Part shown: positions 2,579 to 43,975 of the stretch, in pieces
How the letters are laid out: each line of letters starts with the position of its first letter
How positions within the stretch are numbered: position 1 is the first letter of the stretch
NCBI GenBank assembly: GCA_964481775.1
Contig: CAYZUX010000002.1
Coordinates: 20,221 to 84,220, forward strand
Direction: 5' to 3'
DNA: 64,000 nt
From: an uncultured bacterium
Lineage (GTDB): Bacteria > Hinthialibacterota > Hinthialibacteria > OLB16
Made by a program: the position numbers and the translations under genes
The notes under the pieces: model-generated
What the model saw: only the letters and a program-made list of their open reading frames with translations
The model's database searches: none
Told to the model about the DNA's origin: nothing

Positions 2579-2734
2579 TACTATGATCTGTAACCCAGTG
2601 GATCAATTCCCCTCTCCATTTCAACCATCAGTTGTTTCTGTTCCGGCAATCTCACCGGATCGCTGATTGACCCGCCTTTCAGGATGGGATACCCTATCTA
2701 TAAACAATAGTACCAGTCCTCCACAGATTCATGC

Positions 2735-3853: not shown

Positions 3854-3890
3854 GATCAAAATCTCTGTTCTCCTTATCCCATAAAAACCG

Positions 3891-4628: not shown

Positions 4629-4695
4629 CTTCAAGTCTTACACAATCTCTTCGCCACCATCTGTACAGACTAAGTTGTGTATGAGAGGATACCCC

Positions 4696-10144: not shown

Positions 10145-11272
10145 CTACTCCCTGTATTGACTGAAGAACTCCGCCAGCCGGTCTCCGAGGACCTCCATGC
10201 TGTAATGATCGACAGCAGTCAGACGCGCATGACGGGAGATGCTTTTCCTCAGCTCGTGATCCCTCGCCAAAGTAAGCATGGCATCGGCCATTCCATCCAG
10301 GCTGTTCACCAGCAAGCCGTTTTCACGATCACGGATCACATAACCGACCTCTCCAATATTGGAGGCCACGACCGCAAGTCCTGTTGCCAGATACTCGAAA
10401 AGTTTGGTGGGTGATTTGCTCCTGACCCACTCGTTGTCCACAGCGAAGGGAAGGATACCCACATCTGCCTCCCGCAAGATGCTAGGCATGGCTTGAGGCG
10501 GGAACCAGCCGTGAAAGATGATCGGAACATGGTCATAATGGGTCTTGGTAAACTCCACCAGCCTGTGCCAATGAAAGCCACCTCCCACAATCATCATCCG
10601 GCTGTTGGGAAACTCCCGGTTGACTCTCTCGAAGGCCTGAATGGCCAACACCACGCAGTTGAAGATTTCATCTCCCCATACAATCCCATTCCACAGGTAG
10701 GTGAGCGGTGCATCGGGCGAGTGGTCTTCGCGTGGCGGGTGGAAATCACCGGTGTCGACACCCGTCTCGATCCGGGTTACCCGTGGGTTGAGCGGACGCA
10801 TGTAATCCTCAAGGGCATGGCTGCTGACCACGCAGCCCGCCGCACGGCGCGCCATCTTCTCGGTGATCACATCCCATTTGTGCGATCCAAAAAGAAGCCG
10901 GTTCCAACGCCCACGATGGAAGAAGTTGGAGAGCGGAACATCATAATCATCATAGTCCAGGATGAAGCGTTTACGCAAAAAACGGTGTAGCAGGAATGGG
11001 GCGGCGGAGTGGAAATGGACTTTCTGGACATACAGGAAATCAGCATGCTTGAGCAGGAGTTTCCAGGTGGCACGCAACACCAGCTTCATCTTGTCCCGGT
11101 CACGCAGGTGGGCATACATGTCCTCCTCGCGCAGATGTTCAGCCAGGTGGTCCTTGAATGAAAAGACCTCGGTCTCGAAACCTCTTTCCTTGAGTGCCTT
11201 GGCGAACCCATAGCACCGGACCCGGGTATGGGGGTATTGCATCCCGCTATGGCCAACAAAAACAATCTTCAT
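10145..11272 (-). CDS. Glycosyltransferase family 4 (GT-B, group 1)
   Basis: MKIVFVGHSGMQYPH N-terminal fold. EX7E-type motif SKSPTKLFEYLATGLAVVAS. ATGA overlap with the upstream rhomboid-like gene. Confidence 0.7.
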   Translation of the reverse strand: MKIVFVGHSGMQYPHTRVRCYGFAKALKERGFETEVFSFKDHLAEHLREEDMYAHLRDRDKMKLVLRATWKLLLKHADFLYVQKVHFHSAAPFLLHRFLRKRFILDYDDYDVPLSNFFHRGRWNRLLFGSHKWDVITEKMARRAAGCVVSSHALEDYMRPLNPRVTRIETGVDTGDFHPPREDHSPDAPLTYLWNGIVWGDEIFNCVVLAIQAFERVNREFPNSRMMIVGGGFHWHRLVEFTKTHYDHVPIIFHGWFPPQAMPSILREADVGILPFAVDNEWVRSKSPTKLFEYLATGLAVVASNIGEVGYVIRDRENGLLVNSLDGMADAMLTLARDHELRKSISRHARLTAVDHYSMEVLGDRLAEFFSQYRE

Positions 11273-12426
11273 CCGGTTCCCCGAAAAGGCCTCCCCTCGA
11301 CTTCCTTCACTTGCTCGATCAGATCGATCACCTCGCCAAAGCGATGGTGATCCTTATACCTGTCATAAAGGTTCCTGAGAAGGTCTTTGGCCTCCTGGAT
11401 ATCTCCCAACCGGTGAAGCGCGATTCTCGAAAGACGAAGTCCGGCTTCGAAGGTCACATTCACATCATTCTCTGTCCGGAGAACATCCCGGTAAACCGAA
11501 CCGGCTGCAAGGACATCGCCCAGAACCGGAAGCTGATTGGCAAGGTCCATCCTTTCACCGGTAGTCACTGGGAGAGAATTCTCTGTCTTGCGGGTTCTAC
11601 GATAGATTTCAAAGGCTGCTTTTGGAACATCCGCCTTAAGGGCTGACTGGAAATTCCGGTAATCCAGTTTGACTTGTTTCCGTAACTGGATCTCCTCCAG
11701 GCGTTGGCGTGAATGTTCAAGAATTCGCGACCTGGGGAGATAACGTACCCACAAGGCAATCCCGGCGCCCGCAAGGAAGCCACCCAGTGGAACCGTGTAA
11801 CTGGCCACCGAGAGATCCCCCATCCAGTAGGACTCACCAAGTTTCAGCGAGAGCCAGATGGGGATACAGGCAATGGCCGGGAGGGTAATGGTATCCTTGA
11901 CTGGCTGGTACATGAAGTGAATCAGCCAGACAAACAGAAACCGGCATTCGAGGTTTGGCAGGAGGAACAGCTGCGCCGCAAAGAGAGCGGTGACAAGCGA
12001 ATCGGCGCCGGTCATAGAGTATGCACCACCAGCATAATCCGCGTAATACCACAGTCCCCAGGAATATGCCCAGCTCCCCGCGACAGCTCCAGACATGAGT
12101 AGAAGGACATAGCGTCGCCAGCCAAGCCGTTCCTCGACATAGCACCCGAAAAGCCAGAGAAAGATCAGATTGAGAATCAGGTGGAAAACATTCGTGTGAA
12201 CCAGAGAGCTGGTGAGGTAGCTCCACGGGTGGGGGTTGTTGCCGGTGTAAGCGAAGAGGCGAATGACCGCATCACGACTCCCGGCCTGAAAATCCGCGAA
12301 GGTCTCGCCAACCCAATAGACAAAAAGGATAAACCAGATCAGGCACAATGCGGCCAGCAGTCCATAGGTTGCCCTCGGGACCTCTTGGAGAGGCGTCTCC
12401 GCAGCGACCGGGAGGATAATGAACAT
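11269..12426 (-). CDS. Rhomboid-like polytopic membrane protein with C-terminal TPR-like domain; catalytic His apparently missing
   Basis: TM2 motif LVHTNVFHLILNLIFLWLFG (H..HL..N). TM4 LLLMSGAVAG carries the candidate Ser. The TM6 position reads VPLGGFLAGAG with no His. Soluble TPR-like C-terminus. Confidence 0.5.
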   Translation of the reverse strand: MFIILPVAAETPLQEVPRATYGLLAALCLIWFILFVYWVGETFADFQAGSRDAVIRLFAYTGNNPHPWSYLTSSLVHTNVFHLILNLIFLWLFGCYVEERLGWRRYVLLLMSGAVAGSWAYSWGLWYYADYAGGAYSMTGADSLVTALFAAQLFLLPNLECRFLFVWLIHFMYQPVKDTITLPAIACIPIWLSLKLGESYWMGDLSVASYTVPLGGFLAGAGIALWVRYLPRSRILEHSRQRLEEIQLRKQVKLDYRNFQSALKADVPKAAFEIYRRTRKTENSLPVTTGERMDLANQLPVLGDVLAAGSVYRDVLRTENDVNVTFEAGLRLSRIALHRLGDIQEAKDLLRNLYDRYKDHHRFGEVIDLIEQVKEVEGRPFRGTG

Positions 12427-13945: not shown

Positions 13946-15057
13946 CAGCGCTTTTTCCCCTGTCCACGCACCTGTTCATCCCAACGGCGCATCCAGTCAT
14001 TCATCCGTTCCAGGTACACACCCCAATCCAGTGACAGGGACACATAGTTCAGGTTGCGCATCCATTCAGGCATTGACTCTGCAGGTAGGCCTTGACGGGC
14101 CGGGATCCTGTAAAAGGGATCACCCGCGAGACGGATAGCGCTGGTGGTGGAGGTCACGAACTCGTAATAGGCCCTGGCTGCATGGGGGTGTTGGGCACCT
14201 TTGATCAAGGCGATCCCATCCAGGATGACAGGGCATCCACTCTCTGGAAAGACAACTTCGAAGGGATATTGATAGCGGCTTTTCTGCATCATGATGTCAG
14301 ACAGAGTCCAGACGCTGAGTGCTCCGACCCGTTGTGCGACCTTGCGGAACAGGAGCTCTCCACCGGAAAGATACTCCTTCACATTCCGGTCCACCTCCAG
14401 CATCCACTCGAAGGCATCGTCCTCATTCCCGGTCAGTTTGACCGACTGTTGAATCTTGCCAAAAAAGATCGCTCGCATGGTATCGGAGGGGATGGGATAA
14501 CGCAGAAGAATCTGGTCTTTGTAACGGGGGTCGGCCAGATCCTCCCAGTCGGTGGGCGCATTTTCGGGAGAGATCAACTCTGAATTGTAGAAGATGATCT
14601 CCGGCGAGAGGAAAGTGGGATACCAGAGGTCCTGGGGATCATGCTGAGCCGGGCTGACTTGATCCGCCCAGGAGGGTTTGTAGCTTTCCAGAAGGCCTTC
14701 TTTCGCCGCCACCATGAAAGTGGTGTGACCCGCTCCCCACCAGACATCCGCGAGCGGATTCTGGTGTTCATTCCGAACTCTTTCCAGGCATTGTTGGGAG
14801 GGCAGGTACAGGAAATCGACCACCGTTCCAGGATATTGGGCTTCAAAACGCTCCTTGAAGTCACCGAGGATTTCCTTTCCATGCGGCGAGTAAACAATCA
14901 CCTTCTCCTCAATCCCCAGGGGGGTTACCGCGGGATGTTCAATCCCTCCACCACACCCAGCCAGGCAGAGTATGATCCCAATGGCCGCAAACCGCACATT
15001 AACAAGGATCAGGTGGTGTTTCATGGGACCCAGTATATCCGCAGGAACATGGTTCAA
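13945..15057 (-). CDS. Periplasmic solute-binding lipoprotein (ABC-type SBP, Fe3+/polyamine-like family 1); no permease or ATPase nearby
   Basis: Lipobox IILCLAGCGGG. SBP-like VIVYSPHGKEILGDFKERFEAQYPGTVVDFLY...ADVWWGAGH. Confidence 0.6.
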   Translation of the reverse strand: MNHVPADILGPMKHHLILVNVRFAAIGIILCLAGCGGGIEHPAVTPLGIEEKVIVYSPHGKEILGDFKERFEAQYPGTVVDFLYLPSQQCLERVRNEHQNPLADVWWGAGHTTFMVAAKEGLLESYKPSWADQVSPAQHDPQDLWYPTFLSPEIIFYNSELISPENAPTDWEDLADPRYKDQILLRYPIPSDTMRAIFFGKIQQSVKLTGNEDDAFEWMLEVDRNVKEYLSGGELLFRKVAQRVGALSVWTLSDIMMQKSRYQYPFEVVFPESGCPVILDGIALIKGAQHPHAARAYYEFVTSTTSAIRLAGDPFYRIPARQGLPAESMPEWMRNLNYVSLSLDWGVYLERMNDWMRRWDEQVRGQGKKR

Positions 15058-15063
15058 TAGAGC

Positions 15064-16230
15064 CTACCTGGTCCGCGGTCCTGATTTGTTTCCCTCCACA
15101 TGGCAGTAGATACAGGGACGGTCACGGAGCATGTTTTTATCACTTGTCCAACCGCGTGGATGAGGATTGAAAGCATCACTGAAGACTGAGTGACACTGCA
15201 CGCAATTGCTATCACGTCCCTGGTCATGGCAAGCCGCACAGGTGGCGATCTCGCGCCGTGCAACAAGCCCATGGAAGCTGGGAGAAGCGGGATCGGAATA
15301 GCCGACCGGATGCGGCGAGGTGAGGAACTGATCCTGGGCGGGATTGTCCGCCACCCCATGCTGCTGATGACATTGCTCACAGTAACTGGGGCGATGGCAC
15401 GTGATACAAAGGGCCGGGTCATTGCGAGCCTCGATGAAGTGGCGCGACAGGTAGTCCGCGGAGTGGATGAACTGCCGGTCCGTACGTCCATGGTGTTTCA
15501 TGTTCGCGGCGAGCTCATCACTCTGATTGGCATGACACTCCATGCAGTCATCCTGGGTGTGACACTGGACACAGACACCTGTCTGGGACCAGGTGTACTG
15601 CTGATGATCGCGAAGGAAGTCACCTTCATGGCTGAAACGAGACATGGGTTTCAGTCCGATCGAGTAGAGATCCTTGTGGCAGTTCATGCATTGCAGGTCC
15701 TGGTATTGCTTTTCATGGTAATGACAGTTCAGGCACACCTGCATCACGGGGATGTTACGGTCAGACATGCGGGTACTGCGGCGGTTGGTGGTGTGACAAT
15801 ACTCACACCCTTTCTCCATGCCGGGCAGGCCGATGTGCTGCTTGTGAGAAAAATGAAGCGCGGTACGTACCGGCGGGACCTTCGCTTCGGGAATAATGTG
15901 GCACTTGCTGCACTCATCGTTGTTGAACCACTCCTGATGGCATTTCAGGCAGGTTTTCATGGGAGGTGTATGCTGACCGGTATCATCAGTGGATTCCTTG
16001 ACCGAACGGTGGCAGTAGTCGCAGTCCATCCCCACCTCCGGGCCGAGGTGAAGGCTGTGACTGTAATGATGGGTCTCATAGGGGGTAGGGCGGGGCGGCA
16101 ACCACCCGGACTTCATCAGCACCGCACAGCCAGCCAGCAGGATGATGGCGCTGATCAGCATCAGGGGGAGCGCTTGAAAAAGGTACCAGCCCAAGTTGCG
16201 ATGAAGTCTTTCTATCATGGGCATGCTCAC
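15064..16230 (-). CDS. Multiheme cytochrome c lipoprotein (13 CxxCH motifs)
   Basis: 13 CxxCH motifs in 388 aa (CDYCH, CLKCH, CSKCH, CEYCH, CLNCH, CMNCH, CVQCH, CMECH, CITCH, CEQCH, CAACH, CVQCH, CIYCH). N-terminal signal with lipobox LLAGC. Confidence 0.85.
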   Translation of the reverse strand: MSMPMIERLHRNLGWYLFQALPLMLISAIILLAGCAVLMKSGWLPPRPTPYETHHYSHSLHLGPEVGMDCDYCHRSVKESTDDTGQHTPPMKTCLKCHQEWFNNDECSKCHIIPEAKVPPVRTALHFSHKQHIGLPGMEKGCEYCHTTNRRSTRMSDRNIPVMQVCLNCHYHEKQYQDLQCMNCHKDLYSIGLKPMSRFSHEGDFLRDHQQYTWSQTGVCVQCHTQDDCMECHANQSDELAANMKHHGRTDRQFIHSADYLSRHFIEARNDPALCITCHRPSYCEQCHQQHGVADNPAQDQFLTSPHPVGYSDPASPSFHGLVARREIATCAACHDQGRDSNCVQCHSVFSDAFNPHPRGWTSDKNMLRDRPCIYCHVEGNKSGPRTR

Positions 16231-17684
16231 TCGTAGGACCTGTAGAATGCCGGAACCGGAAGATCGGTGTGTGGAAGCCAGCGCCCTCCATACCCAGGAT
16301 AGTCTCCAATCAGATCCTGGGTGACACCACCCACCATCCGCTTGTCAAACCAGTAGGTGACTGAGAACAAGACCTGGAACTCCGTGTTATCGACCGCACT
16401 ATCCACATACCGTAATGTACCCACCGCTTCGAGGCGTTTGGTGGGACGGTATCCGACACTCTGCGCCAAAGAGAAACTGTGCGGAGATCCATTCACCGGG
16501 TCACGATAGAGGGTCGCCGCTGCCTCCCAGGATGTCCACAGCCAGGAGGTATAATAATGGTGGTCAGTGATCCGGAAGCGGTCAAATCCATTATCGATGG
16601 ATTCGTAGCGGTCATCGCCCTCGATGAATGCAATCCCCTGCTCCGGCGGTTCGACATGGCGCAACTCCAGCGAGAGAGAACTGTCATCCTGGTAATAATA
16701 ACGGGCTCCCAGACGGTACTCCCAATAGCTCTTCCCGGGCACATGGAACAGGGGATTCGCCCCCCCTGGGCTATCGGAATCGTAACGAACTGCCTCCAAC
16801 CAGAGCCTCCAGTCACGGTCCGGGGTGAACTCGAGTCCAGCAGCGATTTCCTTAATCTCATCATTGGAAAAAACCGACAGCACCGAGGTCTGGGGTAAGA
16901 GGGCCCCTGGAATCGTTTCATCATAGCTGAGAGTGAACTTCGCACAGGGATGGAATTTCAAACCAGCAAATAATCCCAGGTCGATGATATCATCCGTGAT
17001 GGTGTCATAGGTGACATGCTCGGAAAGCTCGACCCAGTAAAGGGGACGCCAAAAGAAATCCTGCGTGAATGCCTCCCGATCCAGGTCGCCGTCATCGGTC
17101 CGGTAGACATAGGAGAGTCCCACTTCGGAACCCAGGAAAGGCCTTACCCAAACGCGGCCCCCACCGACACGGTCATTGCTTTTGCCGCCATAGTCCGAAA
17201 CCACGGGGAGTCCACCGAAAAGAGAGTAACCATGGCCACCATCCAGTTGTTTGGACCACAAGAGCCCATCGAACCTCTCATATAGACCACCCTCAAAGAC
17301 ATACTGACGTCCAAAGCGGGCGTAGGTGTTGGGCTGACGTGGATCCTGCCACTGAAAATACCCAGTCAATAACTCGGATTCAAAAGAGTCATCGGCCTGG
17401 TAGTAGGCATAATCCGACTGATCCCAGAGATCCTGACGTACCCAGCCAGATCCATGAAAAGACCATCCGCTCCGATTAAACTCTGAGAGATGGAGGGTCA
17501 TGTACTGCCGGATCGGAAGGAAATAGTCTTCATCAGGATCAAGGAGACGTTCTTCGCGGAGGTAGACATGCGAACGGAGCTGGCCTTCCATCCGGAGGGC
17601 ATGAACAGGAGGTATGTTCACAATCCCCCAAACGAGACTCAGTCCCACCAGAAAGCAAAACTGCCTCACCCTCCAAGGAGGCAC
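16227..17684 (-). CDS. Putative outer-membrane beta-barrel protein (porin-like), translationally coupled to the multiheme cytochrome
   Basis: Signal peptide ending VHA. Y/W/D/G-rich with alternating amphipathic stretches (TEFQVLFSVTYWF, LEAVGTLRYV). 4-nt overlap with the cytochrome start. No family assignment possible by eye. Confidence 0.45.
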   Translation of the reverse strand: MPPWRVRQFCFLVGLSLVWGIVNIPPVHALRMEGQLRSHVYLREERLLDPDEDYFLPIRQYMTLHLSEFNRSGWSFHGSGWVRQDLWDQSDYAYYQADDSFESELLTGYFQWQDPRQPNTYARFGRQYVFEGGLYERFDGLLWSKQLDGGHGYSLFGGLPVVSDYGGKSNDRVGGGRVWVRPFLGSEVGLSYVYRTDDGDLDREAFTQDFFWRPLYWVELSEHVTYDTITDDIIDLGLFAGLKFHPCAKFTLSYDETIPGALLPQTSVLSVFSNDEIKEIAAGLEFTPDRDWRLWLEAVRYDSDSPGGANPLFHVPGKSYWEYRLGARYYYQDDSSLSLELRHVEPPEQGIAFIEGDDRYESIDNGFDRFRITDHHYYTSWLWTSWEAAATLYRDPVNGSPHSFSLAQSVGYRPTKRLEAVGTLRYVDSAVDNTEFQVLFSVTYWFDKRMVGGVTQDLIGDYPGYGGRWLPHTDLPVPAFYRSYE

Positions 17685-18694: not shown

Positions 18695-21685
18695 TCAATA
18701 ACTCAAAGCGGCTTGAGGAATTATTTCCCGGGTTTTGCCAGGAACCTGCCAGTAGAGTCTGAGCGCCTCACCCCCTCCAATCGTGTCGGAGTAGAGGATA
18801 CGAATGGGATGCTTCCCTTGAGTCATCTGGAGAGGTGCCTGGAGGTAACGGTTTCTCTGCTCTTTGCCACCGGCTGTTTCGACCACTTTCTGTCCATCGA
18901 TTTCCACCAGGGCATAGTCCCAGGCCTCGGTGCCAATCTGGTAACTGCCCTCCACCGGACAATCCAGAAAACCTTTCCACTCCATGCTGAGTGGGAATTT
19001 GTAGGGGGGATTCCAGCGGTAATTAATGAAAGGATCCACCCAGACAAATTCCGGTTTTCCCTCCCACTTACGTCCACCATGCCAGTAGGTCATGCGCAAT
19101 CCCCGCGGTAACATGCCCCGGTCATGGAATTGTTCGCCCCCCAATTCCTGCCAATCCCCGCCTCCAAGTGGAATGTACATCACCCGGGTCAGAGCCGTAT
19201 AGGTCTGAGATGCGAAGGTAAACTCGATTTGATGGGCTCCAGCCAGAAGATCCCTGGCGACTTCAGCGGTTCCTGCTCCAGGACTTGCATCCAAAATCTT
19301 TTCAGCGTCGATCCACAGAGTGAATCGATCGGGTGTCTCGATCCGGAAACGATAACCACCTTGCCTTCCCTCGGGGATGACCCACATCGCCTTGCCCTTG
19401 ATCTGGAAAGGTGCAGGTAAAACCAGTTCCGCCGGGTTAAAAGTGAGGACGGGTTGTGTCACCGAGGCCTTGAATGGAACCCCCTTATCCGAGCCTGAAA
19501 GATCAAGGGAAAAGCCACGATGCTTGAGCTTGATTTCAGAGGGAACGCGGTACCACCGGAAGATAGTCCCTCCCCATGGGTCCTTGGCATCCGTGCCAGT
19601 CACCTCCGGACCATACAGCCACTCGATCCATGCCATCTTGTCGGGACGATTCTGGGGTTCCATCACAATGTAAAGGGCATCTTCATCAGGGGCCCCATGC
19701 GCGGGGAGTTCCTGTTGCACGAACAGATGGTTCCGCCAGACCCCCTCCTTGTTGAGCAGCTTGAGCGAGTTATGACCATTCGCATCACTGACCGCATAGA
19801 ACTTGCCCTGCTGAGTGTTGACGAATTTAGCCATATCCACGAACTTGGCATCAAAATGAACATAGGGATCCCTTTTGGGGAGTTGGTCACGGAAATAGAG
19901 ATGGTACTCCCCCCACCAGAAGAACCCGATGATCACCATGGCGCTCACCCACCCCATCCAACGGAGAGGCTCGGTAAGCCACCTCCGGCCAGGAAGACAG
20001 TCATCGGCAAGTGTGAGGCAGGCGATCCCCACCATACGCAATGCCACTGCTGACCAGATACAAATGACGGGGATAACACAGATCGCGCGGAGTGTATTGG
20101 GCGCCTCGATGGAGAGGACCATTGGCAGAAGCATGGCGGTGAACCATCCCAGTGAAAACAGACCGAGACGGCTCCGCCAACGGACCAGGGCCCACATCAT
20201 CCCCAATGGGAACAGAATCCCGGGAATGGGATGGACCATCGGGGCAAGCGAGTGATTATGACGTGGATTCACATCTCCACGAATGTGGAACATCCGGAAG
20301 GTCAGTGTGAGGTTGTCTTTGATCCTCTGCCAGTTGGCACGCCAAGGTTCATCCAGATTCACAATACTGACCATATTGAGCCGTTCCGCGAACACCTCGG
20401 GATGATCTCTTCGGAAATCAATCATCTCCTTGGCGCAGAAAAATGCCGCGGCACCAAAGAGGAGGAAACCCACCAGGTTCCAACGCCACAACTGGCGTTG
20501 CATGAACCAGCGGAGTCCGACAAAGCACGCCAGAACACCAGGGAAAAGGTACAGCGGTTTGTATGAGTAAATACTCAATCCAAAGCAATAACCCCCAACC
20601 AGCCAGATGGGGGCGGTTTTGAGGACATGCCAGATCCATTGTTTCCAGGTGGCACGGAAACTCACGCTTCCACTTCCCTCCGGCGGGGGAACGGGAAATT
20701 CATCTTTTGACTTGAAAGCGAGGAAAAAGAACAAGGCGGTGGCGGTAATGATGAGTGGTGCTTCAATGGCGTCATAAGCCACGCGCGAAAAGTTGACATG
20801 CCAACGGAAAGCCGCCAGGAAGGCCGCACCCAGAAGTGCCGTGGGAGCATCACACAGCCAGCGCAACAACAGGTACAACACGAGTACACCCAGAACTCCG
20901 GCGATCATGGTCGGAAGGCGGATGCTGAATATCGAAGTGCCCAGCCATTTCATCGATAAGGCGATCTGATACATGTGGGCGGTGGCCTTACCGAAACCCT
21001 GGGGGGTGAATACAGGAACCTCGATGGATTCAAGTTGACGATTGAGGGAATCACGTTCCCCTTTGTAACGGTTGACTTCTCCCTGGAGCCTTTGCTTTTC
21101 AGCCCCATCGGTGGCTTTTTCCTCTTCGCTGGTCTTTTCCTTCAGGTTCCGGTTTGCTTCAGAAAGTTTCTGGCGCAGTTCCTTGATGTGTGCCTGATTC
21201 TCCGGTTTCCATTCCTGGAGGAAATCCCGCCCGATCATCGCGTTGGTACTTTCGTCGTAATGCAAACCATACGGAAACTCATTCCCTCTATGGAAACGCA
21301 TTACGATCGCCATCAGGAGGATCAATCCCAACAAGACCAGTTCAGTTTGCCAGGGGAGGGATGCCTTACGACGGCTTGGCAGGTCAGGTACCAGAAGAAG
21401 ACCCAGAGCGAAGAGACCCATGGCGCCCAGAAGCAGGTAATAGGGGCGTGCAGATCTCTGATAATCCACCCAGGGAAAATGATCCGGGTACTGAGGATTC
21501 ACAAGCGGTTTGAGAGTAATCCCCTTGTAGGCAACGAAATCGGGGGAACACATTCCAATCAGATCACAAAGATACAGGACGCTGTAACCAGCCAGGATCA
21601 TTCCCGCGAGAAGCAGAACAATGGCGGGAAAGAGACGGAGGCCCCTGGGAAAGAAAGAAGGAGTGGCTGGAAGGGTGGGTTCCAT
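18695..21685 (-). CDS. Polytopic GT-C-fold glycosyltransferase (PMT/ArnT-like) with coiled-coil insert and two C-terminal PA14 domains
   Basis: About 12-14 N-terminal TM helices. First-loop HYDESTNAMIGRD (GT-C DE motif). PA14 signatures GGYRFRIETPDRFTLWIDAEKILD...AGAHQIEFTF and GSYQIGTEAWDYALVEIDGQKVVET...HPIRILYSDTIGGGEALRLYW. Confidence 0.55.
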   Translation of the reverse strand: MEPTLPATPSFFPRGLRLFPAIVLLLAGMILAGYSVLYLCDLIGMCSPDFVAYKGITLKPLVNPQYPDHFPWVDYQRSARPYYLLLGAMGLFALGLLLVPDLPSRRKASLPWQTELVLLGLILLMAIVMRFHRGNEFPYGLHYDESTNAMIGRDFLQEWKPENQAHIKELRQKLSEANRNLKEKTSEEEKATDGAEKQRLQGEVNRYKGERDSLNRQLESIEVPVFTPQGFGKATAHMYQIALSMKWLGTSIFSIRLPTMIAGVLGVLVLYLLLRWLCDAPTALLGAAFLAAFRWHVNFSRVAYDAIEAPLIITATALFFFLAFKSKDEFPVPPPEGSGSVSFRATWKQWIWHVLKTAPIWLVGGYCFGLSIYSYKPLYLFPGVLACFVGLRWFMQRQLWRWNLVGFLLFGAAAFFCAKEMIDFRRDHPEVFAERLNMVSIVNLDEPWRANWQRIKDNLTLTFRMFHIRGDVNPRHNHSLAPMVHPIPGILFPLGMMWALVRWRSRLGLFSLGWFTAMLLPMVLSIEAPNTLRAICVIPVICIWSAVALRMVGIACLTLADDCLPGRRWLTEPLRWMGWVSAMVIIGFFWWGEYHLYFRDQLPKRDPYVHFDAKFVDMAKFVNTQQGKFYAVSDANGHNSLKLLNKEGVWRNHLFVQQELPAHGAPDEDALYIVMEPQNRPDKMAWIEWLYGPEVTGTDAKDPWGGTIFRWYRVPSEIKLKHRGFSLDLSGSDKGVPFKASVTQPVLTFNPAELVLPAPFQIKGKAMWVIPEGRQGGYRFRIETPDRFTLWIDAEKILDASPGAGTAEVARDLLAGAHQIEFTFASQTYTALTRVMYIPLGGGDWQELGGEQFHDRGMLPRGLRMTYWHGGRKWEGKPEFVWVDPFINYRWNPPYKFPLSMEWKGFLDCPVEGSYQIGTEAWDYALVEIDGQKVVETAGGKEQRNRYLQAPLQMTQGKHPIRILYSDTIGGGEALRLYWQVPGKTREIIPQAALSY

Positions 21686-21839
21686 GACAAGGGTTGATTA
21701 TTAAAGATAGTAAGGTGGATGAACAAGGGCAGGGCTTCGAATCTTTTTTGAGTCATCGAGCCGGGGGGTTGCCACACGGCTTACTCCCGGACTGAGGGGA
21801 AGCAGGGTAATCTGGAGATGATGATAAAAAGCGAGGAGC

Positions 21840-22877
21840 CTACACTCCGCACCTTGCCCCACGGAACTGCTGGAGCACGCGCAGGTCGTTTTCATACAAC
21901 ATGCGGATGTCGGGGATGCCATACTTGATCATCGCCAAGCGTTCGACCCCCATGCCAAAGGCGAAACCGCTCCACTCCTCAGGATCAATCTGGCAGGCCA
22001 GGAGCACATTGGGATGCACCAATCCCGCACCGCCCATTTCGAGCCAGCGCCCCTTGCCCAGAGTGGTCTCAAACCACATATCCACCTCCGCACTCGGTTC
22101 GGTGAAAGGGAAGAAGCTCGGACGGAAACGCAGGGAGGCCTCGGGACCGAAGAGCCCTTTCATCAGGGTCTCCAGAGTCCATTTCAGATGCCCCATGGAG
22201 ATTCCCTTCCCTACCAGAAGACCTTCAATCTGGTGGAACATCGGCAGGTGGGTTGGGTCGCTGTCTCGCCGGTAGACTCTTCCAGGCACTAAAACCTTAA
22301 GGGGCGGTTTGTGGTTCTCCATGAAGTGAATCTGCCCGTTGGATGTGTGCGAACGCAGGAGCAAGCCTCCCTCCAAAAAGAAGGTGTCCTGCATATCACG
22401 GGCGGGGTGGTCCGGGGGGAAATTCAAAGCCTCGAAGTTGTAGTAATCGCTCTCGATCTCACGGTCATCATGGATGTCATAGCCCATCCGCATGAAGATC
22501 GAAGTGACTTCATCGATGATCAGACTGACAGGGTGGCAAGAACCAACCTCCGCGCCACGTCCAGGCAGGGTGATATCGAGCCGCTCTTCCTCCAGGCGTC
22601 TGGCCAGAGCCAGCTCCTCCAGGCGCAGGCTGGCCTGCTCCAACGCTGCCTCAACCTCATCATGAAGGCGATTGACCTCGGCGCCGGCTTGCGGACGCTG
22701 TTCGGGCGGGAGTGCTCCAAGGCTTTTCAGGAGCCCCTTGATGGATCCTTTTTTTCCAAGAAACTGGACACGGACTTCTTCCAGGGCACGTAAATCGTTG
22801 ACCTCCGCCAACGCTTTGAGAGCATTTGCACGGATGCTGCTTAGCTTTTCCGGGAGGTTTGTATCCACGACCGTCAT
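21840..22877 (-). CDS. pheS: Phenylalanine--tRNA ligase alpha subunit
   Basis: Class II aaRS motifs including FRPSFFPFTEPSAEVD and GAGLVHPNVL. Confidence 0.95.
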   Translation of the reverse strand: MTVVDTNLPEKLSSIRANALKALAEVNDLRALEEVRVQFLGKKGSIKGLLKSLGALPPEQRPQAGAEVNRLHDEVEAALEQASLRLEELALARRLEEERLDITLPGRGAEVGSCHPVSLIIDEVTSIFMRMGYDIHDDREIESDYYNFEALNFPPDHPARDMQDTFFLEGGLLLRSHTSNGQIHFMENHKPPLKVLVPGRVYRRDSDPTHLPMFHQIEGLLVGKGISMGHLKWTLETLMKGLFGPEASLRFRPSFFPFTEPSAEVDMWFETTLGKGRWLEMGGAGLVHPNVLLACQIDPEEWSGFAFGMGVERLAMIKYGIPDIRMLYENDLRVLQQFRGARCGV

Positions 22878-22897
22878 GGAAGCTCCGGAGACCGGGA

Positions 22898-23263
22898 TCA
22901 GTGCGCGGCAGAAAGGGCGCTCTTGGCCTGTTCGGCGATAGCGCCGAAGGCGGCCGCATCATCGATCGCCAGTCCCGCCAGGGTCTTCCGGTCGATCTCC
23001 ACCCCGGCTTTGTTCAGACCATCGATCAGCTGGCTGTAATTGAGGCCATGCTGACGAGCCGCGGCACCGATCCGGACAATCCACAGGGCACGGAACTCGC
23101 GTTTGCGCCTCCGGCGGTCACGGTAGGAGTACGCCAAAGCTTTCCAGACACCGGCATGGGCGGAGCGGTAGAGCTTCCCGCGGCCAGCGAAAAAGCCTTT
23201 GGCCATCTTCATCACTTTTTTCCGGCGCCGCCTGGAAGCCGGATTATTGGTTGCGCGTGGCAT
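22898..23263 (-). CDS. rplT: 50S ribosomal protein L20
   Basis: [41 protein letters not shown] matches the L20 consensus. Confidence 0.95.
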
Positions 23264-23396
23264 TTCCTGTTTTCTCCTTAGTCAACCTTGTCGGGTGGGA
23301 TTTACCCTTTGTCCCTGGTCATTTTTGTAGGGTGGGGCTTGCCCCACCTGGTGCAGCAACGGGGGAAATCGTCGGCGGGTCGAGCCCCGCCCTGCC

Positions 23397-23591
23397 TCAC
23401 AATCCAAGCATCCTCCGGACACGACCCGCATCGGTGGACGCAACCGTGGTGGCTTTGCGCAACCCTCTTTTGCGTTTCGTGTTCTTGCTGGTCAGGAGGT
23501 GGCTGTGATAAGCCTTATTCCTCTTGATCTTCCCCTTCTTCGTCAAAGAGAAGCGTTTCGCCGCGCTTCTCAGTGTCTTCACCTTCGGCAT
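23397..23591 (-). CDS. rpmI: 50S ribosomal protein L35
   Basis: MPKVKTLRSAAKRFSLTKKGKIKRNKAYHSHLLTSK. The true start is MPKVKT, 5 codons inside the track ORF. Confidence 0.9.
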   Translation of the reverse strand: MPKVKTLRSAAKRFSLTKKGKIKRNKAYHSHLLTSKNTKRKRGLRKATTVASTDAGRVRRMLGL

Positions 23592-24234
23592 GTTTCTCTC
23601 CTTCATTAACGGGAGTGGCTCCCGCCTTGGCTTCTTTCTCTTCCTGCTTCCTCAGGCGTTCCAGGCGTGCTTTTTCCGCCTTGACTCCCGCCGCATCCGG
23701 CCCCAGGACCATGATCATGTTCCGTCCCTCGGACTGAGGGCGAGATTCCACGATGGCGATGGTCTTCAGATCATCGATGACACGTTGGAGAAGCTTCATC
23801 CCGAATTCCAGGTGATTCCGCTCCCTGCCCCGGAACATCAACACAAATTTGACTTTGTCGTTTTGCAGGAGGAACTTCCGGGCACCACGAATCTTGACTT
23901 CATAGTCATTCTCGCTGATACGCGGGCGGAGTTTGACCTCCTTGACATCAATGGTGTGTTGTTTCCGCCGTGCATCCTTTTGCTTTTTTGCCTGCTCATA
24001 CTTGTAGTTGCCGTAATCCATGATCCGGCAAACATAAGGACGAGCCGCCGATGAGACCTCGACCAGGTCAAGCGCCGCCGCTTCCGCCCGTTTTAGGGCC
24101 TCCTGGATAGGGACGATACCGACATGTTGCCCGCTCTCATCGATCAGGCGGACTTCACTCTCGCGGATATCGTGATTGATACGGTCTTTCGGCTTGGGGA
24201 TCTTGCCGGGGATAAAACGCGGACGCCGTAGGAT
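23515..24234 (-). CDS. infC: Translation initiation factor IF-3, inferred non-AUG (AUC) start and ~60-aa charged C-terminal extension
   Basis: The IF3 N-domain (PKDRINHDIRESEVRLIDESGQHVGIVPIQEALKRAEAAALDLVEVSSAARPYVCRIMDYG) lies upstream of the first ATG. The frame opens directly after the thrS TAG. The only start-like codon after GGAGG is ATC at 24232-24234. C-terminal domain: FRGRERNHLEFGMKLLQRVIDDL...RNMIMVLGP. Confidence 0.8.
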   Translation of the reverse strand: MLRRPRFIPGKIPKPKDRINHDIRESEVRLIDESGQHVGIVPIQEALKRAEAAALDLVEVSSAARPYVCRIMDYGNYKYEQAKKQKDARRKQHTIDVKEVKLRPRISENDYEVKIRGARKFLLQNDKVKFVLMFRGRERNHLEFGMKLLQRVIDDLKTIAIVESRPQSEGRNMIMVLGPDAAGVKAEKARLERLRKQEEKEAKAGATPVNEGEKHAEGEDTEKRGETLLFDEEGEDQEE

Positions 24235-24249
24235 TGCAGAATTCCTCCT

Positions 24250-26241
24250 CTAAACAGTCTGAACCGATGGTCTGGCCAGCTCCCGCTTCAGTCGCGAGAG
24301 CGCATCTTCCAAGGGCAGGCTTCCCTGGTCCCCTTGGGTACGCACCCTGATCGAAACACTCCCCTGCTCGGATTCACGTTTTCCGATCACGAGCATAAAG
24401 GGGACTTTTTCAGTTTCAGCGGAACGGATCTTGTAGCCGATCTTCTCCGCACGTTTGTCAAGTTCAGTACGAATACCCACTTGGCGGCAGTGAGCATACA
24501 CTTTTTCCGCGTAAGGCAAAACCTCATCCACCACCGGAAGGACCCGAACCTGCACCGGGGCCAGCCAGGAAGGGAAAGCGCCCGCGAAATGCTCGATCAG
24601 GATCCCCACGAAACGCTCGAAGGAACCGAAAGGCGCACGGTGAATCATAATCGGCCGATGGGGATTTCCATCGGCACCAGTATACTTGAGGTCAAATCGT
24701 TCGGGCAACACATAGTCCACTTGAACTGTACCCAGTTGCCACTCACGGTTCAGGCAGTCGCGTACCACGAAATCGATTTTGGGGCCATAAAAAGCGGCTT
24801 CTCCCAGCTCCTCACTGAAATCGAGGGTCATCCCTTTCAGCACATTGCGGATATTGGACTCGGCCTGGTCCCACAAGTTTGGACTGCCGCCATATTTATC
24901 GCTGCCGGGATCCCGTTTCCCAAAGCGGATCCTGTAATCTTTAAAGTCAAGGCTCTTAAGAACAAAGAGAACCAGGTCAACAGTCTGGGCCAGTTCCTCC
25001 TCGAGTTGCTCAGGAGTGACAAAGAGATGCGCATCATCCTGGGTGAACCCACGTACGCGGGTCATCCCGGAAAGCTCCCCCGACTGCTCATACCGGTAAA
25101 CTGTTCCAAACTCGGCTAACCGGTAAGGCAGGTCCCGGTAGCTTTTGGGTGTGGCCTCGTAAATCTTGATGTGGTGCGGGCAATTCATCGGCTTGAGGAG
25201 GTAACCCTCCTCAGAGGTATCCTCCTCTGAGCCATGTTCATTCATATGGATCGGTGGGAATTGGGAGTCCTTGTAGTAGGGGAAATGACCACTGGTCCGG
25301 TAAAGGTCGAGCTTCCCGATATGAGGCGTGTACACAGTCTGATAACCATACTCAACCAGTTTTCCACGCAGGAAGGATTCGAGTTCATAGCGGACCGCAG
25401 CCCCCTTGGGGAGCCAGAGAACCAAACCGCCACCAACCTCGCTGGAAATCGTAAAGAGATCAAGTTCCTGACCGAGCTTGCGGTGATCACGCTTCTTGGC
25501 TTCTTCGATCTGTTCGAGATAGGTGTCCAATTCCTTCTGGCTTGGAAATGCGGTCAGGTAGACACGTTGGAGCTGTGGCTGGCTTTCATCCCCATGCCAA
25601 TAAGCACCGGCGGTCATGAGCAGTTTGAAGGCTTTGATTCTTCCGGTACTGGGAACATGCGCTCCGAGACAGAGATCCACCCAATCTCCCTGGCGGTAAC
25701 AGGAGATGGTTTCGCCACGCCGGTCGAGTTCCTCAATCATTTCTTCCTTGAATGGGTTACGTGTCTGTCCCAGGAGTGAGAGACTCTCCCGGGCACCCGA
25801 TTCAACCCTCTCAAGGGGAACATCCGCCGCACAGATCGTGGCCATCCGTTCCTCAATCTTCTTCAGGTCTTCAGAAGTAAAGGGACGATCCACCCGGAAA
25901 TCATAGAAATAACGTTCATCTGCCCAGTCTCCAGCCGCTGGTTGAGCACCGGGGAACAATTCCATCACCGCCTGAGCCATCACATGACCACAGCTGTGTC
26001 TGTAAACCGCACGACCTTCCGGATCTTTGAATGTAAGAATCCTGAGTGAGCCTGAATTCCGAATGGGAGCCGACAGATCCAGAACCCGGCCATTAACGGA
26101 AACAGCCAGTGCATCCGCCGCAAGACGTTTGCCGATGGATTGCGCCAGTTCCAGGCCTGTGATGCCCGGGGGGACCTTCCTCTCACTCCCATCCGGCAGG
26201 GTCAGATGGATATATTCATTTCCAGTATTGTCGGTTGACAT
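24250..26241 (-). CDS. thrS: Threonine--tRNA ligase
   Basis: TGS N-domain and class II core (HRDLPYRLAEFGTVYRYEQSGELSGMTRVRGFTQDDAHLF). Its stop TAG is followed 15 nt later by infC. Confidence 0.95.
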   Translation of the reverse strand: MSTDNTGNEYIHLTLPDGSERKVPPGITGLELAQSIGKRLAADALAVSVNGRVLDLSAPIRNSGSLRILTFKDPEGRAVYRHSCGHVMAQAVMELFPGAQPAAGDWADERYFYDFRVDRPFTSEDLKKIEERMATICAADVPLERVESGARESLSLLGQTRNPFKEEMIEELDRRGETISCYRQGDWVDLCLGAHVPSTGRIKAFKLLMTAGAYWHGDESQPQLQRVYLTAFPSQKELDTYLEQIEEAKKRDHRKLGQELDLFTISSEVGGGLVLWLPKGAAVRYELESFLRGKLVEYGYQTVYTPHIGKLDLYRTSGHFPYYKDSQFPPIHMNEHGSEEDTSEEGYLLKPMNCPHHIKIYEATPKSYRDLPYRLAEFGTVYRYEQSGELSGMTRVRGFTQDDAHLFVTPEQLEEELAQTVDLVLFVLKSLDFKDYRIRFGKRDPGSDKYGGSPNLWDQAESNIRNVLKGMTLDFSEELGEAAFYGPKIDFVVRDCLNREWQLGTVQVDYVLPERFDLKYTGADGNPHRPIMIHRAPFGSFERFVGILIEHFAGAFPSWLAPVQVRVLPVVDEVLPYAEKVYAHCRQVGIRTELDKRAEKIGYKIRSAETEKVPFMLVIGKRESEQGSVSIRVRTQGDQGSLPLEDALSRLKRELARPSVQTV

Positions 26242-26365: not shown

Positions 26366-26442
26366 TGGTGGGCGCTACTGGACTTGAACCAGTGACCCCT
26401 TCCATGTCAAGGAAGTACTCTAGCCAGCTGAGCTAAGCGCCC
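26366..26442 (-). tRNA. tRNA-Val (anticodon GAC), 77 nt with encoded CCA
   Basis: RC reads GGGCGCTTAGCTCAGCTGGCTAGAGTACTTCCTTGACATGGAAGGGGTCACTGGTTCAAGTCCAGTAGCGCCCACCA. Acceptor 7 bp GGGCGCT/AGCGCCC; anticodon stem CTTCC/GGAAG with loop TTGACAT; T-arm ACTGG/TTCAAGT/CCAGT. Confidence 0.85.
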
Positions 26443-30816: not shown

Positions 30817-31317
30817 ATGCAACGACGGAGATTTCTTGAATCAGTGGTGGCCACCCTGGGGGCAGGTGCACTCGCCATTTTCGCTGCGGTGACAGGAACA
30901 CTCCAGGTGCTTTCTCCCATTTTCCACAAGACCAACCGCGAAAGCGAGTGGTTCTCCCTCGGGAAACAGGATGAGTTTACTCCAGGTCTTCCGACACCCA
31001 AAGTCATTCACATTGTGGTTCAGGATGGCTGGCAAACGCGGAAACAGAGCCAGATGGTCTATGTACTCCTGAAAGAGGGGAAACCAGTCGTATTCTCTTC
31101 AGTCTGTCCCCATCTGAGCTGTCCAGTCTCCTTTCAAGAGGAAAAAAAGAGATTCCATTGCTCCTGTCATCAATCCTATTGGGATGCGGATGGACAACGG
31201 CTCGCTGGTCCCGCCGCGCGGGGACTGGACTCACTTCCCATCCGGATTGAGGGTGATGAAGTGTTCTGCAGGTGGGTGCAATACCGTTCAGGACTCTCCG
31301 AGGCGGTTGAGGTCTGA
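30817..31317 (+). CDS. Rieske [2Fe-2S] subunit of a cytochrome bc-type complex, Tat-exported
   Basis: Twin-arginine leader MQRRRFLESVVATLGAGALA. Rieske boxes CPHLSCPV and CSCHQSYWD. Confidence 0.85.
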   Translation: MQRRRFLESVVATLGAGALAIFAAVTGTLQVLSPIFHKTNRESEWFSLGKQDEFTPGLPTPKVIHIVVQDGWQTRKQSQMVYVLLKEGKPVVFSSVCPHLSCPVSFQEEKKRFHCSCHQSYWDADGQRLAGPAARGLDSLPIRIEGDEVFCRWVQYRSGLSEAVEV

Positions 31318-31321
31318 CAGA

Positions 31322-43786: not shown

Positions 43787-43975
43787 GGGAATGATCTCCC
43801 CCTTTGTGTTCTTAAATAGAACGGCGAGGTTGATGGCGAGAAAAACCAATTCTAATGTAGCGTAATCTGACACATTTGTCAAATTTGATTTATCACACAA
43901 TGGATGGGTTGTGATCCGGATTGCGGCGTATTCCATGGTCGTTTAGGCTTGTATCCGGCAAGGAGGAACCCAAAA

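Follow-up and report, generated by a model that had tools for sequence, protein, structure and literature searches.

The stretch of DNA analysed here (64,000 nucleotides; the window) carries a complete gene for a protein of 996 residues, starting at ATG and followed by a stop codon, that combines a GT-C glycosyltransferase membrane domain with a periplasmic α/β domain and a pair of PA14 modules (Table 1). The open reading frame, which an earlier note on this DNA had singled out, is real and lies on the minus, not the plus, strand: the plus-strand frame over the same interval is riddled with stops, and all three peptide strings quoted in that note occur in the minus-strand translation. An identical protein (P0001) exists in the public collection. 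Horizontal transfer of the gene was considered and rejected, GC content being uniform (~0.52–0.55) over the gene and its flanks. A terminator-like hairpin overlaps the pheS stop codon upstream of the gene, suggesting that the gene forms a transcription unit by itself, although the hairpin is a pattern match of a kind that is not enriched over shuffled sequences. The downstream gene is convergent.

Table 1 Features of the gene and its upstream flank. Positions refer to the window; aa, amino acid residues of the encoded protein.
Feature	Position	Strand	Basis
Complete coding sequence, GT-C glycosyltransferase with periplasmic α/β domain and PA14 dyad	18695..21685	-	ORF list, translation
N-terminal extension, aa 1-108	21362..21685	-	hydropathy, AF2 helices, loop charge count
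GT-C membrane core, aa 109-598 (11 TM helices, juxtamembrane helices)	19892..21361	-	
HYDES motif, aa 142-146, putative catalytic Asp144-Glu145, start of extracytoplasmic loop 1	21248..21262	-	
Clade-specific charged helical hairpin, aa 158-222	21020..21214	-	AF2, span lengths, alignment
WHVNFSR motif, aa 295-301, short periplasmic loop TM3-TM4	20783..20803	-	AF2 helices, topology count
FHIRGDVNPRHN, aa 466-477, family signature, long periplasmic loop TM7-TM8	20255..20290	-	
Periplasmic α/β domain, aa 599-721	19523..19891	-	
PA14 module A, aa 722-859, divergent, Pro785-Asp786 in place of DcisD	19109..19522	-	hhalign, Foldseek, motif count
PA14 module B, aa 860-996, Trp922-Asp923 in place of DcisD	18698..19108	-	
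Upstream terminator-like hairpin, overlapping the pheS stop codon	21835..21848	-	consensus scan, sequence

Hydropathy and an AF2 model of the whole protein (pLDDT 82.3, pTM 0.77) place about 13 transmembrane (TM) helices in the polypeptide, in keeping with the “about a dozen” first proposed. The topology count gives an N-in/C-out arrangement, with Lys and Arg making up 9 of 57 residues in the predicted cytoplasmic loops versus 9 of 105 in the short periplasmic loops, and thereby locates the PA14 modules in the periplasm. Two extra TM helices (residues 14–39 and 75–98, approximately) form the N-terminal extension; the periplasmic loop joining them is modelled with low confidence (44–73 at pLDDT <50), and the extension ends in a cytoplasmic PSRRKAS linker. 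Because these two helices precede the core, the loop that bears the putative catalytic residues comes after the third TM helix of the protein, although, counted within the GT-C core, it is the first.

The identity of the core is supported by both profile and structure comparisons. PMT_2 (PF13231) matches at 35.9 bits against a Pfam cut-off of 26.1, making the protein a member of clan CL0111 above the curated threshold, and the fold of the polytopic N-terminal membrane domain superposes on solved GT-C enzymes, with ArnT as the best structural match (Foldseek E=3.2e-8), so the GT-C assignment made in the earlier note stands. Searched against solved structures, a profile of the TM region finds AglB alone (E=3.4e-5), in an alignment that begins after the DE motif, while the full profile reaches Pmt1 marginally (E=0.089) and TMEM260 at E=0.75.

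Despite its rank as nearest structural match, ArnT (GT83; Cupriavidus metallidurans, PDB 5ezm/5f15) is only 13–15% identical to the query and lacks the PA14 modules, the loop-1 hairpin, and the two-helix N-terminal extension. An ArnT-like enzyme would take a sugar from an undecaprenyl-phosphate donor and attach it to lipid A or LPS core, the PA14 modules being accessories. Relatives are indeed named “ArnT-like glycosyltransferase” at JGI, and in the close relatives L002 and L009 a divergently oriented LpxH-like phosphoesterase gene (Metallophos) lies just upstream, together with a UbiA prenyltransferase. The LpxH-like hit falls below its cut-off, however, and the window contains no homologue of either gene. 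We considered the same pair as a polyprenyl-phosphoribose donor pathway and rejected it, as UbiA matches generic prenyltransferase models only and the phosphoesterase has only that LpxH-like hit. With E up to 1 allowed, the query matches only archaeo_STT3 and Agl23 in NCBIfam, neither of which comes near its cut-off, and no ArnT model; no arn genes, and hence no arn operon context, were found in the window. ArnT has no need of lectin-type domains, and its acceptor, lipid A, is an unlikely one for Anaerolineae-annotated members of the family: many Anaerolineae lack LPS, and at least one family sequence cluster (P0013) is annotated to that class. We therefore regard transfer to lipid A or LPS core as very improbable.

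Three periplasmic loops of the core hold conserved motifs. Asp144 of the HYDES motif is invariant and Glu145 nearly so in alignment A1, which includes homologues 22–27% identical to the query; the pair occurs in 165 of 170 family proteins and is invariant in alignment A4, a diverse sample of 37 representatives at only 23–29% identity. The topology count puts this loop in the periplasm, and the first-loop DE motif described at the outset is thus borne out as the acidic site expected of a GT-C enzyme. Protein O-mannosyltransferase-type enzymes (PMTs; GT39; yeast Pmt1-Pmt2 6p25/6p2r, Pmt4 9e61; M. tuberculosis PMT) share with the query both the loop-1 Asp-Glu pair and a conserved Arg ~14 residues upstream of it, which would be the equivalent of Pmt1 R64. 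A conserved downstream Arg could pair with the Glu, like R138 in Pmt1. The role of the acidic pair in EL1 has been described for Pmt1 (D77/E78) and other GT-C enzymes (PMC7801869). Invariant residues of WHVNFSR in A1 are W295, F299, and R301; the equivalent Arg is also invariant in A4, and we infer that this motif is a donor-phosphate or active-site element. The third site, for which the family consensus is MFNxxGDxNGRHNLPG, retains G470 and D471 almost without exception in A1, and the G, D, and N almost without exception in A4; by analogy with other GT-C enzymes, whose external loops are mobile, the TM7–TM8 loop that carries it may have a similar function. All 37 representatives in A4 share invariant R, P, D, E, R, and G columns, among others.

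The ~60-residue charged coiled coil reported in the first extracytoplasmic loop is present and is best termed an antiparallel helical hairpin. It is inserted between the DE-bearing helix on one side and the next juxtamembrane helix on the other, and its two helices (161–190 and 194–221) are modelled by AF2 at pLDDT ~85–91 across the block. The hairpin is 60–65 residues long, each helix measuring ~45 Å as calculated from residue count at 1.5 Å per residue rather than from the model, and the segment contains 14 Lys/Arg and 15 Asp/Glu. Weak Pfam and NCBIfam matches to UPF0242, golgins, phage scaffold and capsid proteins, and SMC-like proteins in this segment were dismissed as coiled-coil composition noise. 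The span from D144 to R256 is 103–112 residues only in P0001–P0009 and is below 60 in every other aligned protein (40–59 in 158 of them), which confines the hairpin to the ~ten closest relatives. Among these it is the fastest-diverging segment, retaining a heptad-like spacing of hydrophobic residues, and it is the sole lineage-specific part of the protein. An inserted domain is also found in the first periplasmic loop of Emb proteins, which shows that this loop tolerates insertions. The hairpin, adjoining the active-site loop, is a lineage-specific, fast-evolving decoration that may shape or gate access of the acceptor.

Beyond the membrane domain, the earlier note assigned ~480 C-terminal residues to two PA14 modules. 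The presence of two modules holds, whereas their extent was overstated, since residues 599–721 form a separate α/β domain and the PA14 pair occupies residues 722–996 (~275 residues). Among close relatives, no segment is better conserved than the α/β domain (90–94% identity versus 74–79% for PA14 module A); a structure search with it gave no convincing match, and it is probably the counterpart of the soluble domain of GT-C enzymes. Module B scores above the gathering threshold for PF07691 (residues 900–991, E=3.6e-15) with the expected β-sandwich fold and is the only PA14 domain that Pfam finds in the query, module A on its own reaching just E=0.12. Module A is nevertheless a PA14 domain, because hhalign of the family profiles aligns it with module B (99.9%, E=4.5e-36), Foldseek aligns ~295 columns covering both modules to the PA14 dyad of RsgI3 (6qe7; E=8.7e-15), and Pfam detects two PA14 stretches in distant homologues.

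These modules had been called lectin-like and carbohydrate-binding. Sugar-binding PA14 domains are defined by a calcium/sugar site in which a DcisD (or D-cis-N) pair on strand 5 and an Asn in CBL2 coordinate the sugar-binding calcium; the calcium-dependent sugar binding of the Flo5, Epa1, and RsgI domains needs DcisD, and, lacking this motif, module B of C. thermocellum RsgI3 is unable to bind pectin alone (PMC6852018). Judged on the DcisD pair, neither module of the query belongs with the calcium-dependent lectin-type PA14 domains (Flo5, Epa1, MpIBP, RsgI), as the site is occupied by P785-D786 and W922-D923. Across the family, Asp-Asp at this site occurs in no module A among the pairs listed and in module B of 20 of 170 proteins. 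With DcisD missing from both modules, the description “lectin-like” is therefore not established.

The closest relatives of the C-terminal region in both sequence and structure are RsgI3 and RsgI4 (Clostridium thermocellum, C. clariflavum; 6qe7/6qdi), with profile matches at E=1.6e-35 and 1.5e-30. They share with the query an extracytoplasmic PA14 dyad on a membrane-anchored protein but bind pectin or xylan through the DcisD/N calcium site. RsgI proteins are, moreover, single-pass anti-sigma factors and not enzymes, whereas the N-terminal 600 residues of the query form a 13-TM GT-C domain; of the RsgI architecture (anti-sigma-I domain, single TM helix, sensor), the PA14 dyad alone was found. 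This kinship raises the idea that the GT-C domain is catalytically dead and serves as a membrane-anchored sensor or scaffold displaying PA14, as in RsgI. The presence of a response-regulator–STAS gene and a PAS histidine kinase gene nearby, in both the window and L002, would fit such a role. The family-wide conservation of the catalytic DE pair and of several Arg, His, and Gly-Asp motifs is, by contrast, that of enzymes, the N-terminal anti-sigma domain of RsgI is lacking, and the signalling neighbours are missing in L001, L003, L009, and L010. We give this explanation hardly any credence.

The same neighbours, along with rhomboid, GT4, and GT41-TPR genes, were considered as a clue to donor or acceptor and rejected. 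All are common only to the 80%-identical L002 and missing from L001, L003, L009, and L010, so that they reflect plain synteny; since no neighbour is kept beyond relatives of ~80% identity, the genomic context is uninformative on both substrates. No GtrB-like GT2 polyprenyl-phosphate sugar synthase or GtrA flippase gene adjoins the gene in the window, L002, L003, L009, or L010, and in L001 a GT2 gene lies 6.6 kb upstream; as far as linked genes are concerned, the clustered GtrA/GtrB/GT-C three-component arrangement is thus not seen.

The query belongs to a large family. At E<=1e-30 its profile matches 8817 representatives, and the best 150 cluster representatives (50% identity) all match essentially end to end, giving at least 150 clusters at 50% identity with the full architecture. 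A second, word-indexed homologue search with the alignment as query added almost nothing. PMT_2 and PA14 occur together in all 37 sampled representatives and an additional NHL propeller in 20, so that the fusion is conserved on comparison: the GT-C core and PA14 dyad are always fused, and the propeller is added in about half. These uncharacterised proteins, from Anaerolineae and other uncultured bacteria, are whole-length homologues with the same domain order as the query and share its DE, WHxNFSR, and GDxNGRHN motifs and PA14 dyad; they lack the loop-1 hairpin, and about half carry the NHL β-propeller at the C terminus. Some family members are tandem paralogues adjoining a giant DUF2298 protein. 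Contrary to the earlier impression that this architecture had not been described, the family is common and publicly annotated, as “PA14 domain-containing protein” (e.g., NCBI HMR64476.1) or under the JGI name above, and a “PMT2/PA14” entry for Chloroflexi bacterium 44-23 is mentioned in an appendix (PMC8756737). That passing entry is all we found on GT-C proteins with PA14; the literature holds no functional study of the combination and no experiment on any family member.

Several observations bear on what the enzyme acts upon. One candidate is a bacterial protein O-glycosyltransferase of PMT type. Its PA14 dyad (and NHL propeller in relatives) would then recognise protein and not glycan, a task comparable to that of MIR domains in eukaryotic PMTs, TPRs in TMTCs, and the WW-like motif in M. 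tuberculosis PMT. The loop-1 DE pair is a PMT hallmark, and the best profile relatives of solved structure, AglB, TMEM260, and Pmt1, all belong to protein glycosylation. PF02366 matches 7 and STT3 4 of the 37 representatives, and PF02366 is also carried by P0017, P0019, and P0020, the nearest relatives without PA14; the lack of a sugar-binding DcisD site in both modules likewise fits a protein ligand. The query itself, however, has neither PF02366 nor the PMT C-terminal four-TM module among its Pfam hits at E up to 1, and no Pfam hit to the MIR β-trefoil. Whereas eukaryotic PMTs carry MIR in the TM7–TM8 loop, that loop spans ~58 residues in the query, in which the extra module for acceptor recognition is C-terminal and of PA14 type. 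The best structural match is a lipid-modifying enzyme, the closest PA14 relatives are polysaccharide sensors, and the gene is not linked to any candidate substrate protein. On balance, a PMT-like function is possible but unlikely.

Alternatively, the dyad could tether or localise the enzyme, to a wall polymer or partner protein, or regulate it, leaving acceptor choice to the membrane and α/β domains. The missing canonical sugar site and the greater conservation of the α/β domain relative to module A are consistent with this, and the PA14 domain of anthrax protective antigen has no known lectin role. The dyad is nonetheless kept in every sampled family member across 23–29% identity, which argues for a core role, and comparable modules in AftD and EmbC bind the acceptor. 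We consider a purely tethering or regulatory dyad rather improbable.

AftD and EmbA/B/C, the mycobacterial arabinofuranosyltransferases, likewise fuse a GT-C core to periplasmic β-sandwich modules, and these bind the polymeric acceptor. AftD is a GT-C enzyme with periplasmic glycan-binding modules, and the C-terminal domain of EmbC is cited as a further glycan-binding precedent. Acceptor selection built into a GT-C enzyme therefore has precedent already. The query differs in belonging to another GT-C subfamily, in having PA14 domains and not CBM-type jelly rolls, and in lacking extra C-terminal TM helices; it has neither an Arabinose_trans nor a DUF3367 hit, and nothing points to an arabinan pathway.

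We somewhat favour the view that the protein is an active inner-membrane GT-C (ArnT/PMT/STT3-like) polyprenyl-phosphate-sugar transferase with a built-in acceptor-docking module, analogous to AftD and EmbC. A polyprenyl-phosphate-linked sugar would be presented at the periplasmic face to a catalytic centre composed of Asp144-Glu145 and conserved Arg/His residues (R130, R256, WHVNFSR, and GDxNPRHN) and passed to an acceptor macromolecule outside the cytoplasm, which may be a glycan of the cell envelope or a (glyco)protein that is secreted or displayed at the surface. The C-terminal 400 residues, comprising the α/β domain and then the PA14 dyad, would dock and position this acceptor, much as the CBMs do in AftD/EmbC and the MIR domains in eukaryotic PMTs, although PA14 binding would have to occur at a site distinct from the canonical DcisD calcium site. 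More tentatively, and with considerable doubt on our part, GT-C proteins with a PA14 dyad, with or without NHL, might form a large, widespread, and unstudied class of periplasmic glycosyltransferases in which an acceptor, a glycan or glycoprotein of the cell envelope, is picked by a calcium-independent, non-DcisD PA14 surface; in the lineage of the window, the loop-1 hairpin might be a new structural element that gates or measures acceptor access or mediates oligomerisation.

Cell envelopes are built and decorated by GT-C enzymes, of which only a handful are understood in their acceptor recognition. The family is common in environmental, poorly studied lineages, including Anaerolineae-annotated sequences and the uncultured lineage of the window, whose ThrRS has its best matches among sequences labelled Omnitrophica and Gemmataceae, a roughly PVC-like placement. 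Because its catalytic core and PA14 dyad always come together, the family is a tractable system for enzyme-borne acceptor recognition. The protein in the window adds the lineage-specific hairpin only, and its value therefore lies in pointing to the family, not in any surprising mechanism. If the proposed docking role is true, PA14 would gain a function outside the calcium-dependent lectin mode.

A single long open reading frame encodes the GT-C/PA14 protein; according to the ORF list and its translation, it opens with ATG and comprises 996 codons. The frame runs on the minus strand; the same interval holds no open frame on the plus strand, where an ORF scan finds stops throughout. The strand is one point of correction to the earlier note, and all three peptide strings it quoted occur in the translation. 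Public metagenomes yield an exact copy of the protein (P0001) as well as relatives that span its full length at 54-84% identity (P0002-P0008), indicating that the gene is real and conserved. Its GC content is uniform with that of its flanks. The observation is thus confirmed overall, with corrections to the strand, the extent of the PA14 region, and the position of the loop carrying the DE motif.

Pfam PMT_2 (PF13231) matches residues 237-324 above its gathering score, and the nearest solved relative of the membrane domain by sequence profile is AglB (E=3.4e-5). AF2, supplied with an alignment of 16 sequences, gave a good model (pLDDT 82.3, pTM 0.77). Taken together, these results make the GT-C assignment proposed in the earlier note secure and place the protein outside every characterised GT-C family. 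The NCBIfam matches listed at E up to 1 all fall below threshold and involve only models for Agl23 and archaeal STT3; no ArnT model is among them. By fold, the best match of the GT-C domain is ArnT. Lipid A or LPS modification is an improbable role in our estimate.

Hydropathy and the AF2 helices define 13 transmembrane helices, of which 11 make up the core; the other two (aa 14-39 and 75-98) extend the protein at its N-terminus. With the N-terminus inside, Lys and Arg number 9 in 57 residues of the predicted cytoplasmic loops versus 9 in 105 residues of the short periplasmic loops. By this bias the periplasmic parts are loop 1 (aa 132-251), the loop linking TM7 with TM8, and all residues from 599 to the C-terminus, the same arrangement as in all known GT-C enzymes, and it agrees with the periplasmic PA14 domains anticipated earlier.

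The DE motif noted previously is present as HYDES (aa 142-146) at the start of loop 1, although this loop comes after the third helix. Asp144 is invariant and Glu145 nearly invariant in the family alignment; the pair is found in 165 of 170 family proteins and is invariant in 37 representatives that share just 23-29% identity. Arg130, Pro138, Arg256, Trp295/Phe299/Arg301 (WHVNFSR), and Gly470-Asp471 (GDxNPRHN) are also conserved. In Pmt1, Asp77 touches the acceptor, Arg138 holds Glu78, and mutation of either acidic residue abolishes activity (PMC7801869). We infer that the active-site arrangement here is equivalent to Pmt1 Asp77/Glu78/Arg138. Such strong motif conservation argues for an active enzyme and against a catalytically dead sensor, which we consider very unlikely.

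The C-terminal dyad comprises module A (aa 722-859) and module B (aa 860-996). Pfam detects PA14 in module B alone (E=3.6e-15), module A by itself reaching only E=0.12. Family sub-alignments of the two modules nevertheless match each other with an hhalign probability of 99.9% (E=4.5e-36). The family profile matches the tandem PA14 of RsgI3 (6qe7, E=1.6e-35) and its C. clariflavum homologue (6qdi, 1.5e-30), each over two stretches; Foldseek aligns 6qe7 over ~295 columns, and Pfam detects two PA14 stretches in distant homologues. The earlier count of two PA14 modules therefore holds, although together they span only ~275 residues rather than the C-terminal ~480.

The sugar-binding PA14 domains of Flo5, Epa1, and RsgI hold calcium with a DcisD (or D-cis-N) pair and an Asn, and RsgI3 module B, which lacks the DcisD pair, alone binds neither calcium nor pectin (PMC6852018). 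The dyad studied here has Pro785-Asp786 (module A) and Trp922-Asp923 (module B) at the aligned positions, so the canonical lectin site is absent. Among the pairs listed for 170 family proteins, DD never occurs at this position of module A and occurs in module B of 20. With the defining motif missing from both modules, the lectin function put forward earlier is unproven; carbohydrate binding via another surface is possible. That the dyad serves instead as a tether or regulator strikes us as unlikely.

We favor, with moderate confidence, an active GT-C transferase whose periplasmic modules dock the acceptor. On this view, a sugar carried by polyprenyl phosphate would be transferred, on the periplasmic side of the membrane, to an extracytoplasmic macromolecule, with the alpha/beta domain and PA14 dyad forming a built-in acceptor-docking module. 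Eukaryotic PMTs, with their MIR domains, provide one precedent for such a design. Built-in acceptor selection, as suggested in the earlier note, also has precedents in AftD and Emb: in AftD, long arabinans are bound by three CBMs in the periplasm, and the C-terminal domain of EmbC is described as a lectin-like CBM. Clues to the acceptor are mixed. Sequence affinities lean to protein-glycosylating enzymes (PMT, STT3/AglB), the best fold match is ArnT, and the PA14 relatives are polysaccharide sensors. PMT-like protein glycosylation is a less likely alternative to the docking scheme.

Genomic context is silent on donor and acceptor, since neighbors are not conserved and no GtrB- or GtrA-type donor gene is adjacent. 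A 154-nt gap, with a terminator-like hairpin overlapping the pheS stop (consensus scan and pattern match), precedes the gene, which converges on a response-regulator-STAS (RR-STAS) gene and is probably monocistronic. In the window, pheT does not follow pheS. Because upstream neighbors differ in two relatives (L002, L009), the junction with pheS represents a local rearrangement. Only the 80%-identical, syntenic relative L002 shares the downstream neighbors (PAS kinase, rhomboid, GT4, GT41-TPR); it retains the GT41-TPR/GT4/rhomboid trio and lacks three genes that, in the window, sit between RR-STAS and the PAS histidine kinase. Contexts in the remaining clade members and in distant family members are unrelated to the window. 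The LpxH-like protein of L002 and L009 matches NF003743 under the cut-off (E=3e-30), and tblastn finds no UbiA or LpxH-like homologue in the window. The L008 arrangement and consecutive DUF2298, PMT2/PA14, and PMT2 entries in the Chloroflexi bacterium 44-23 appendix (PMC8756737) suggest that DUF2298 with PMT2/PA14 may be a recurrent pairing in the wider family.

Several further features were recorded. The glycan-degrading genes, in which the window is rich, include BNR/sialidase-like, GH106 alpha-L-rhamnosidase-like, pectate-lyase-like/rhamnogalacturonase-type, and GH92 alpha-mannosidase types. The tRNA-Val(GAC), called by ARAGORN (Rfam tRNA, 64.6 bits), is the sole Rfam match at gathering score within the window. 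The best named relatives of ThrRS are '[bacterium]' (80%), 'Candidatus Omnitrophica bacterium' (76%, partial), and Gemmataceae/Gemmatales (~50-54% identity), which suggests an uncultured PVC-like lineage; a ThrRS with the identical sequence is encoded on an NCBI contig of 95.7 kb.

Coordinates of the GT-C/PA14 gene and of features in the window and at the loci of relatives
Feature	Positions	Strand	Remark
Glycan-degrading genes	window 1247-7050, 43904-45268, 55059-57209
TPR + GT41 (SPY/OGT-like) protein, 700 aa	window 7997-10096	plus	converges on GT4 gene
GT4 glycosyltransferase	window 10148-11272	minus
Rhomboid-domain protein, 385 aa	window 11272-12426	minus	after GT4 gene
Solute-binding protein	window 13948-15057	minus	missing from L002
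Multihaem cytochrome c, Cytochrome_C7 + MtrC/MtrF-like domains	window 15067-16230	minus	missing from L002
485-aa ORF without Pfam or NCBIfam match	window 16230-17684	minus	between RR-STAS and PAS histidine kinase; missing from L002
GT-C/PA14 gene	window 18695-21685	minus
thrS-infC-(rpmI/rplT)-pheS cluster	window 21835-26241	minus	GT-C/PA14 gene comes after pheS
ThrRS	window 24253-26241
tRNA-Val(GAC)	window 26366-26442	minus	immediately upstream of thrS
Cytochrome b (N- + C-terminal domains) fused to C-terminal cbb3-type mono-haem cytochrome c domain, 504 aa	window 31184-32695
UbiA-family prenyltransferase + LpxH-like calcineurin-type phosphoesterase	L002 7737-9500; L009 4631-6316	opposite to GT-C/PA14 gene	directly upstream of GT-C/PA14 gene
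Two tandem PMT_2+PA14 paralogues (881, 842 aa)	L008 1-10529		adjoin DUF2298 membrane protein >2000 aa
PA14 + Golvesin_C protein, 435 aa	L006 13136-14443; L007 5961-7268		P0013 locus (Anaerolineae-type), two genes downstream of GT-C/PA14/NHL gene; cobalamin-biosynthesis genes upstream

The charged coiled coil reported earlier in loop 1 is a real insertion, but an antiparallel helical hairpin describes it better than an oligomeric coiled coil. AF2 places two long helices (161-190 and 194-221; block pLDDT ~85-91), joined by a three-residue turn, after the DE-bearing helix (aa 143-158) and before a juxtamembrane helix (aa 235-248). The hairpin is highly charged yet nearly neutral overall (14 Lys/Arg versus 15 Asp/Glu), with hydrophobic residues in heptad-like spacing, and may mediate dimerization. 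Across 170 family proteins aligned by HMM, the Asp144-to-Arg256 span measures 103-112 residues in P0001-P0009 only and <60 in the remainder (40-59 in 158); P0039, a fragment, seems to be a further member of the clade. A single one of the best 150 50%-identity cluster representatives, P0003, carries the hairpin. It is the quickest-diverging segment, with 20-37% identity in P0006-P0008 versus 63-70% for the transmembrane core, and its length varies. The restricted span, predicted helices, and rapid divergence mark it as a clade-restricted insertion that is structurally maintained and sequence-tolerant, and it is the sole lineage-peculiar feature of the protein.

The fusion itself, which the earlier note had not seen described, is common. 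When the family profile was run with HMMER against the full set of 1.84 billion cluster representatives, 8817 proteins matched at E<=1e-30, and the best 150 of these all match essentially end to end (615-1395 bits). PMT_2 and PA14 occur together in every one of 37 sampled from these 150, bearing out conservation of the fusion; 20 add NHL repeats, and Pfam PMT and STT3 also touch seven and four, respectively. 'PA14 domain-containing protein [Anaerolineae bacterium]' and 'ArnT-like glycosyltransferase' are among the source names, a Chloroflexi genome appendix lists a 'PMT2/PA14' hypothetical protein adjoining a DUF2298 protein (PMC8756737), and full-text literature searches found no study of a GT-C and PA14 fusion. 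The architecture is therefore widespread, already annotated, and functionally unexplored. The earlier interpretation is supported in part, its domain assignment being right. The main interest of this protein is that it draws attention to a GT-C family that is large and unstudied.
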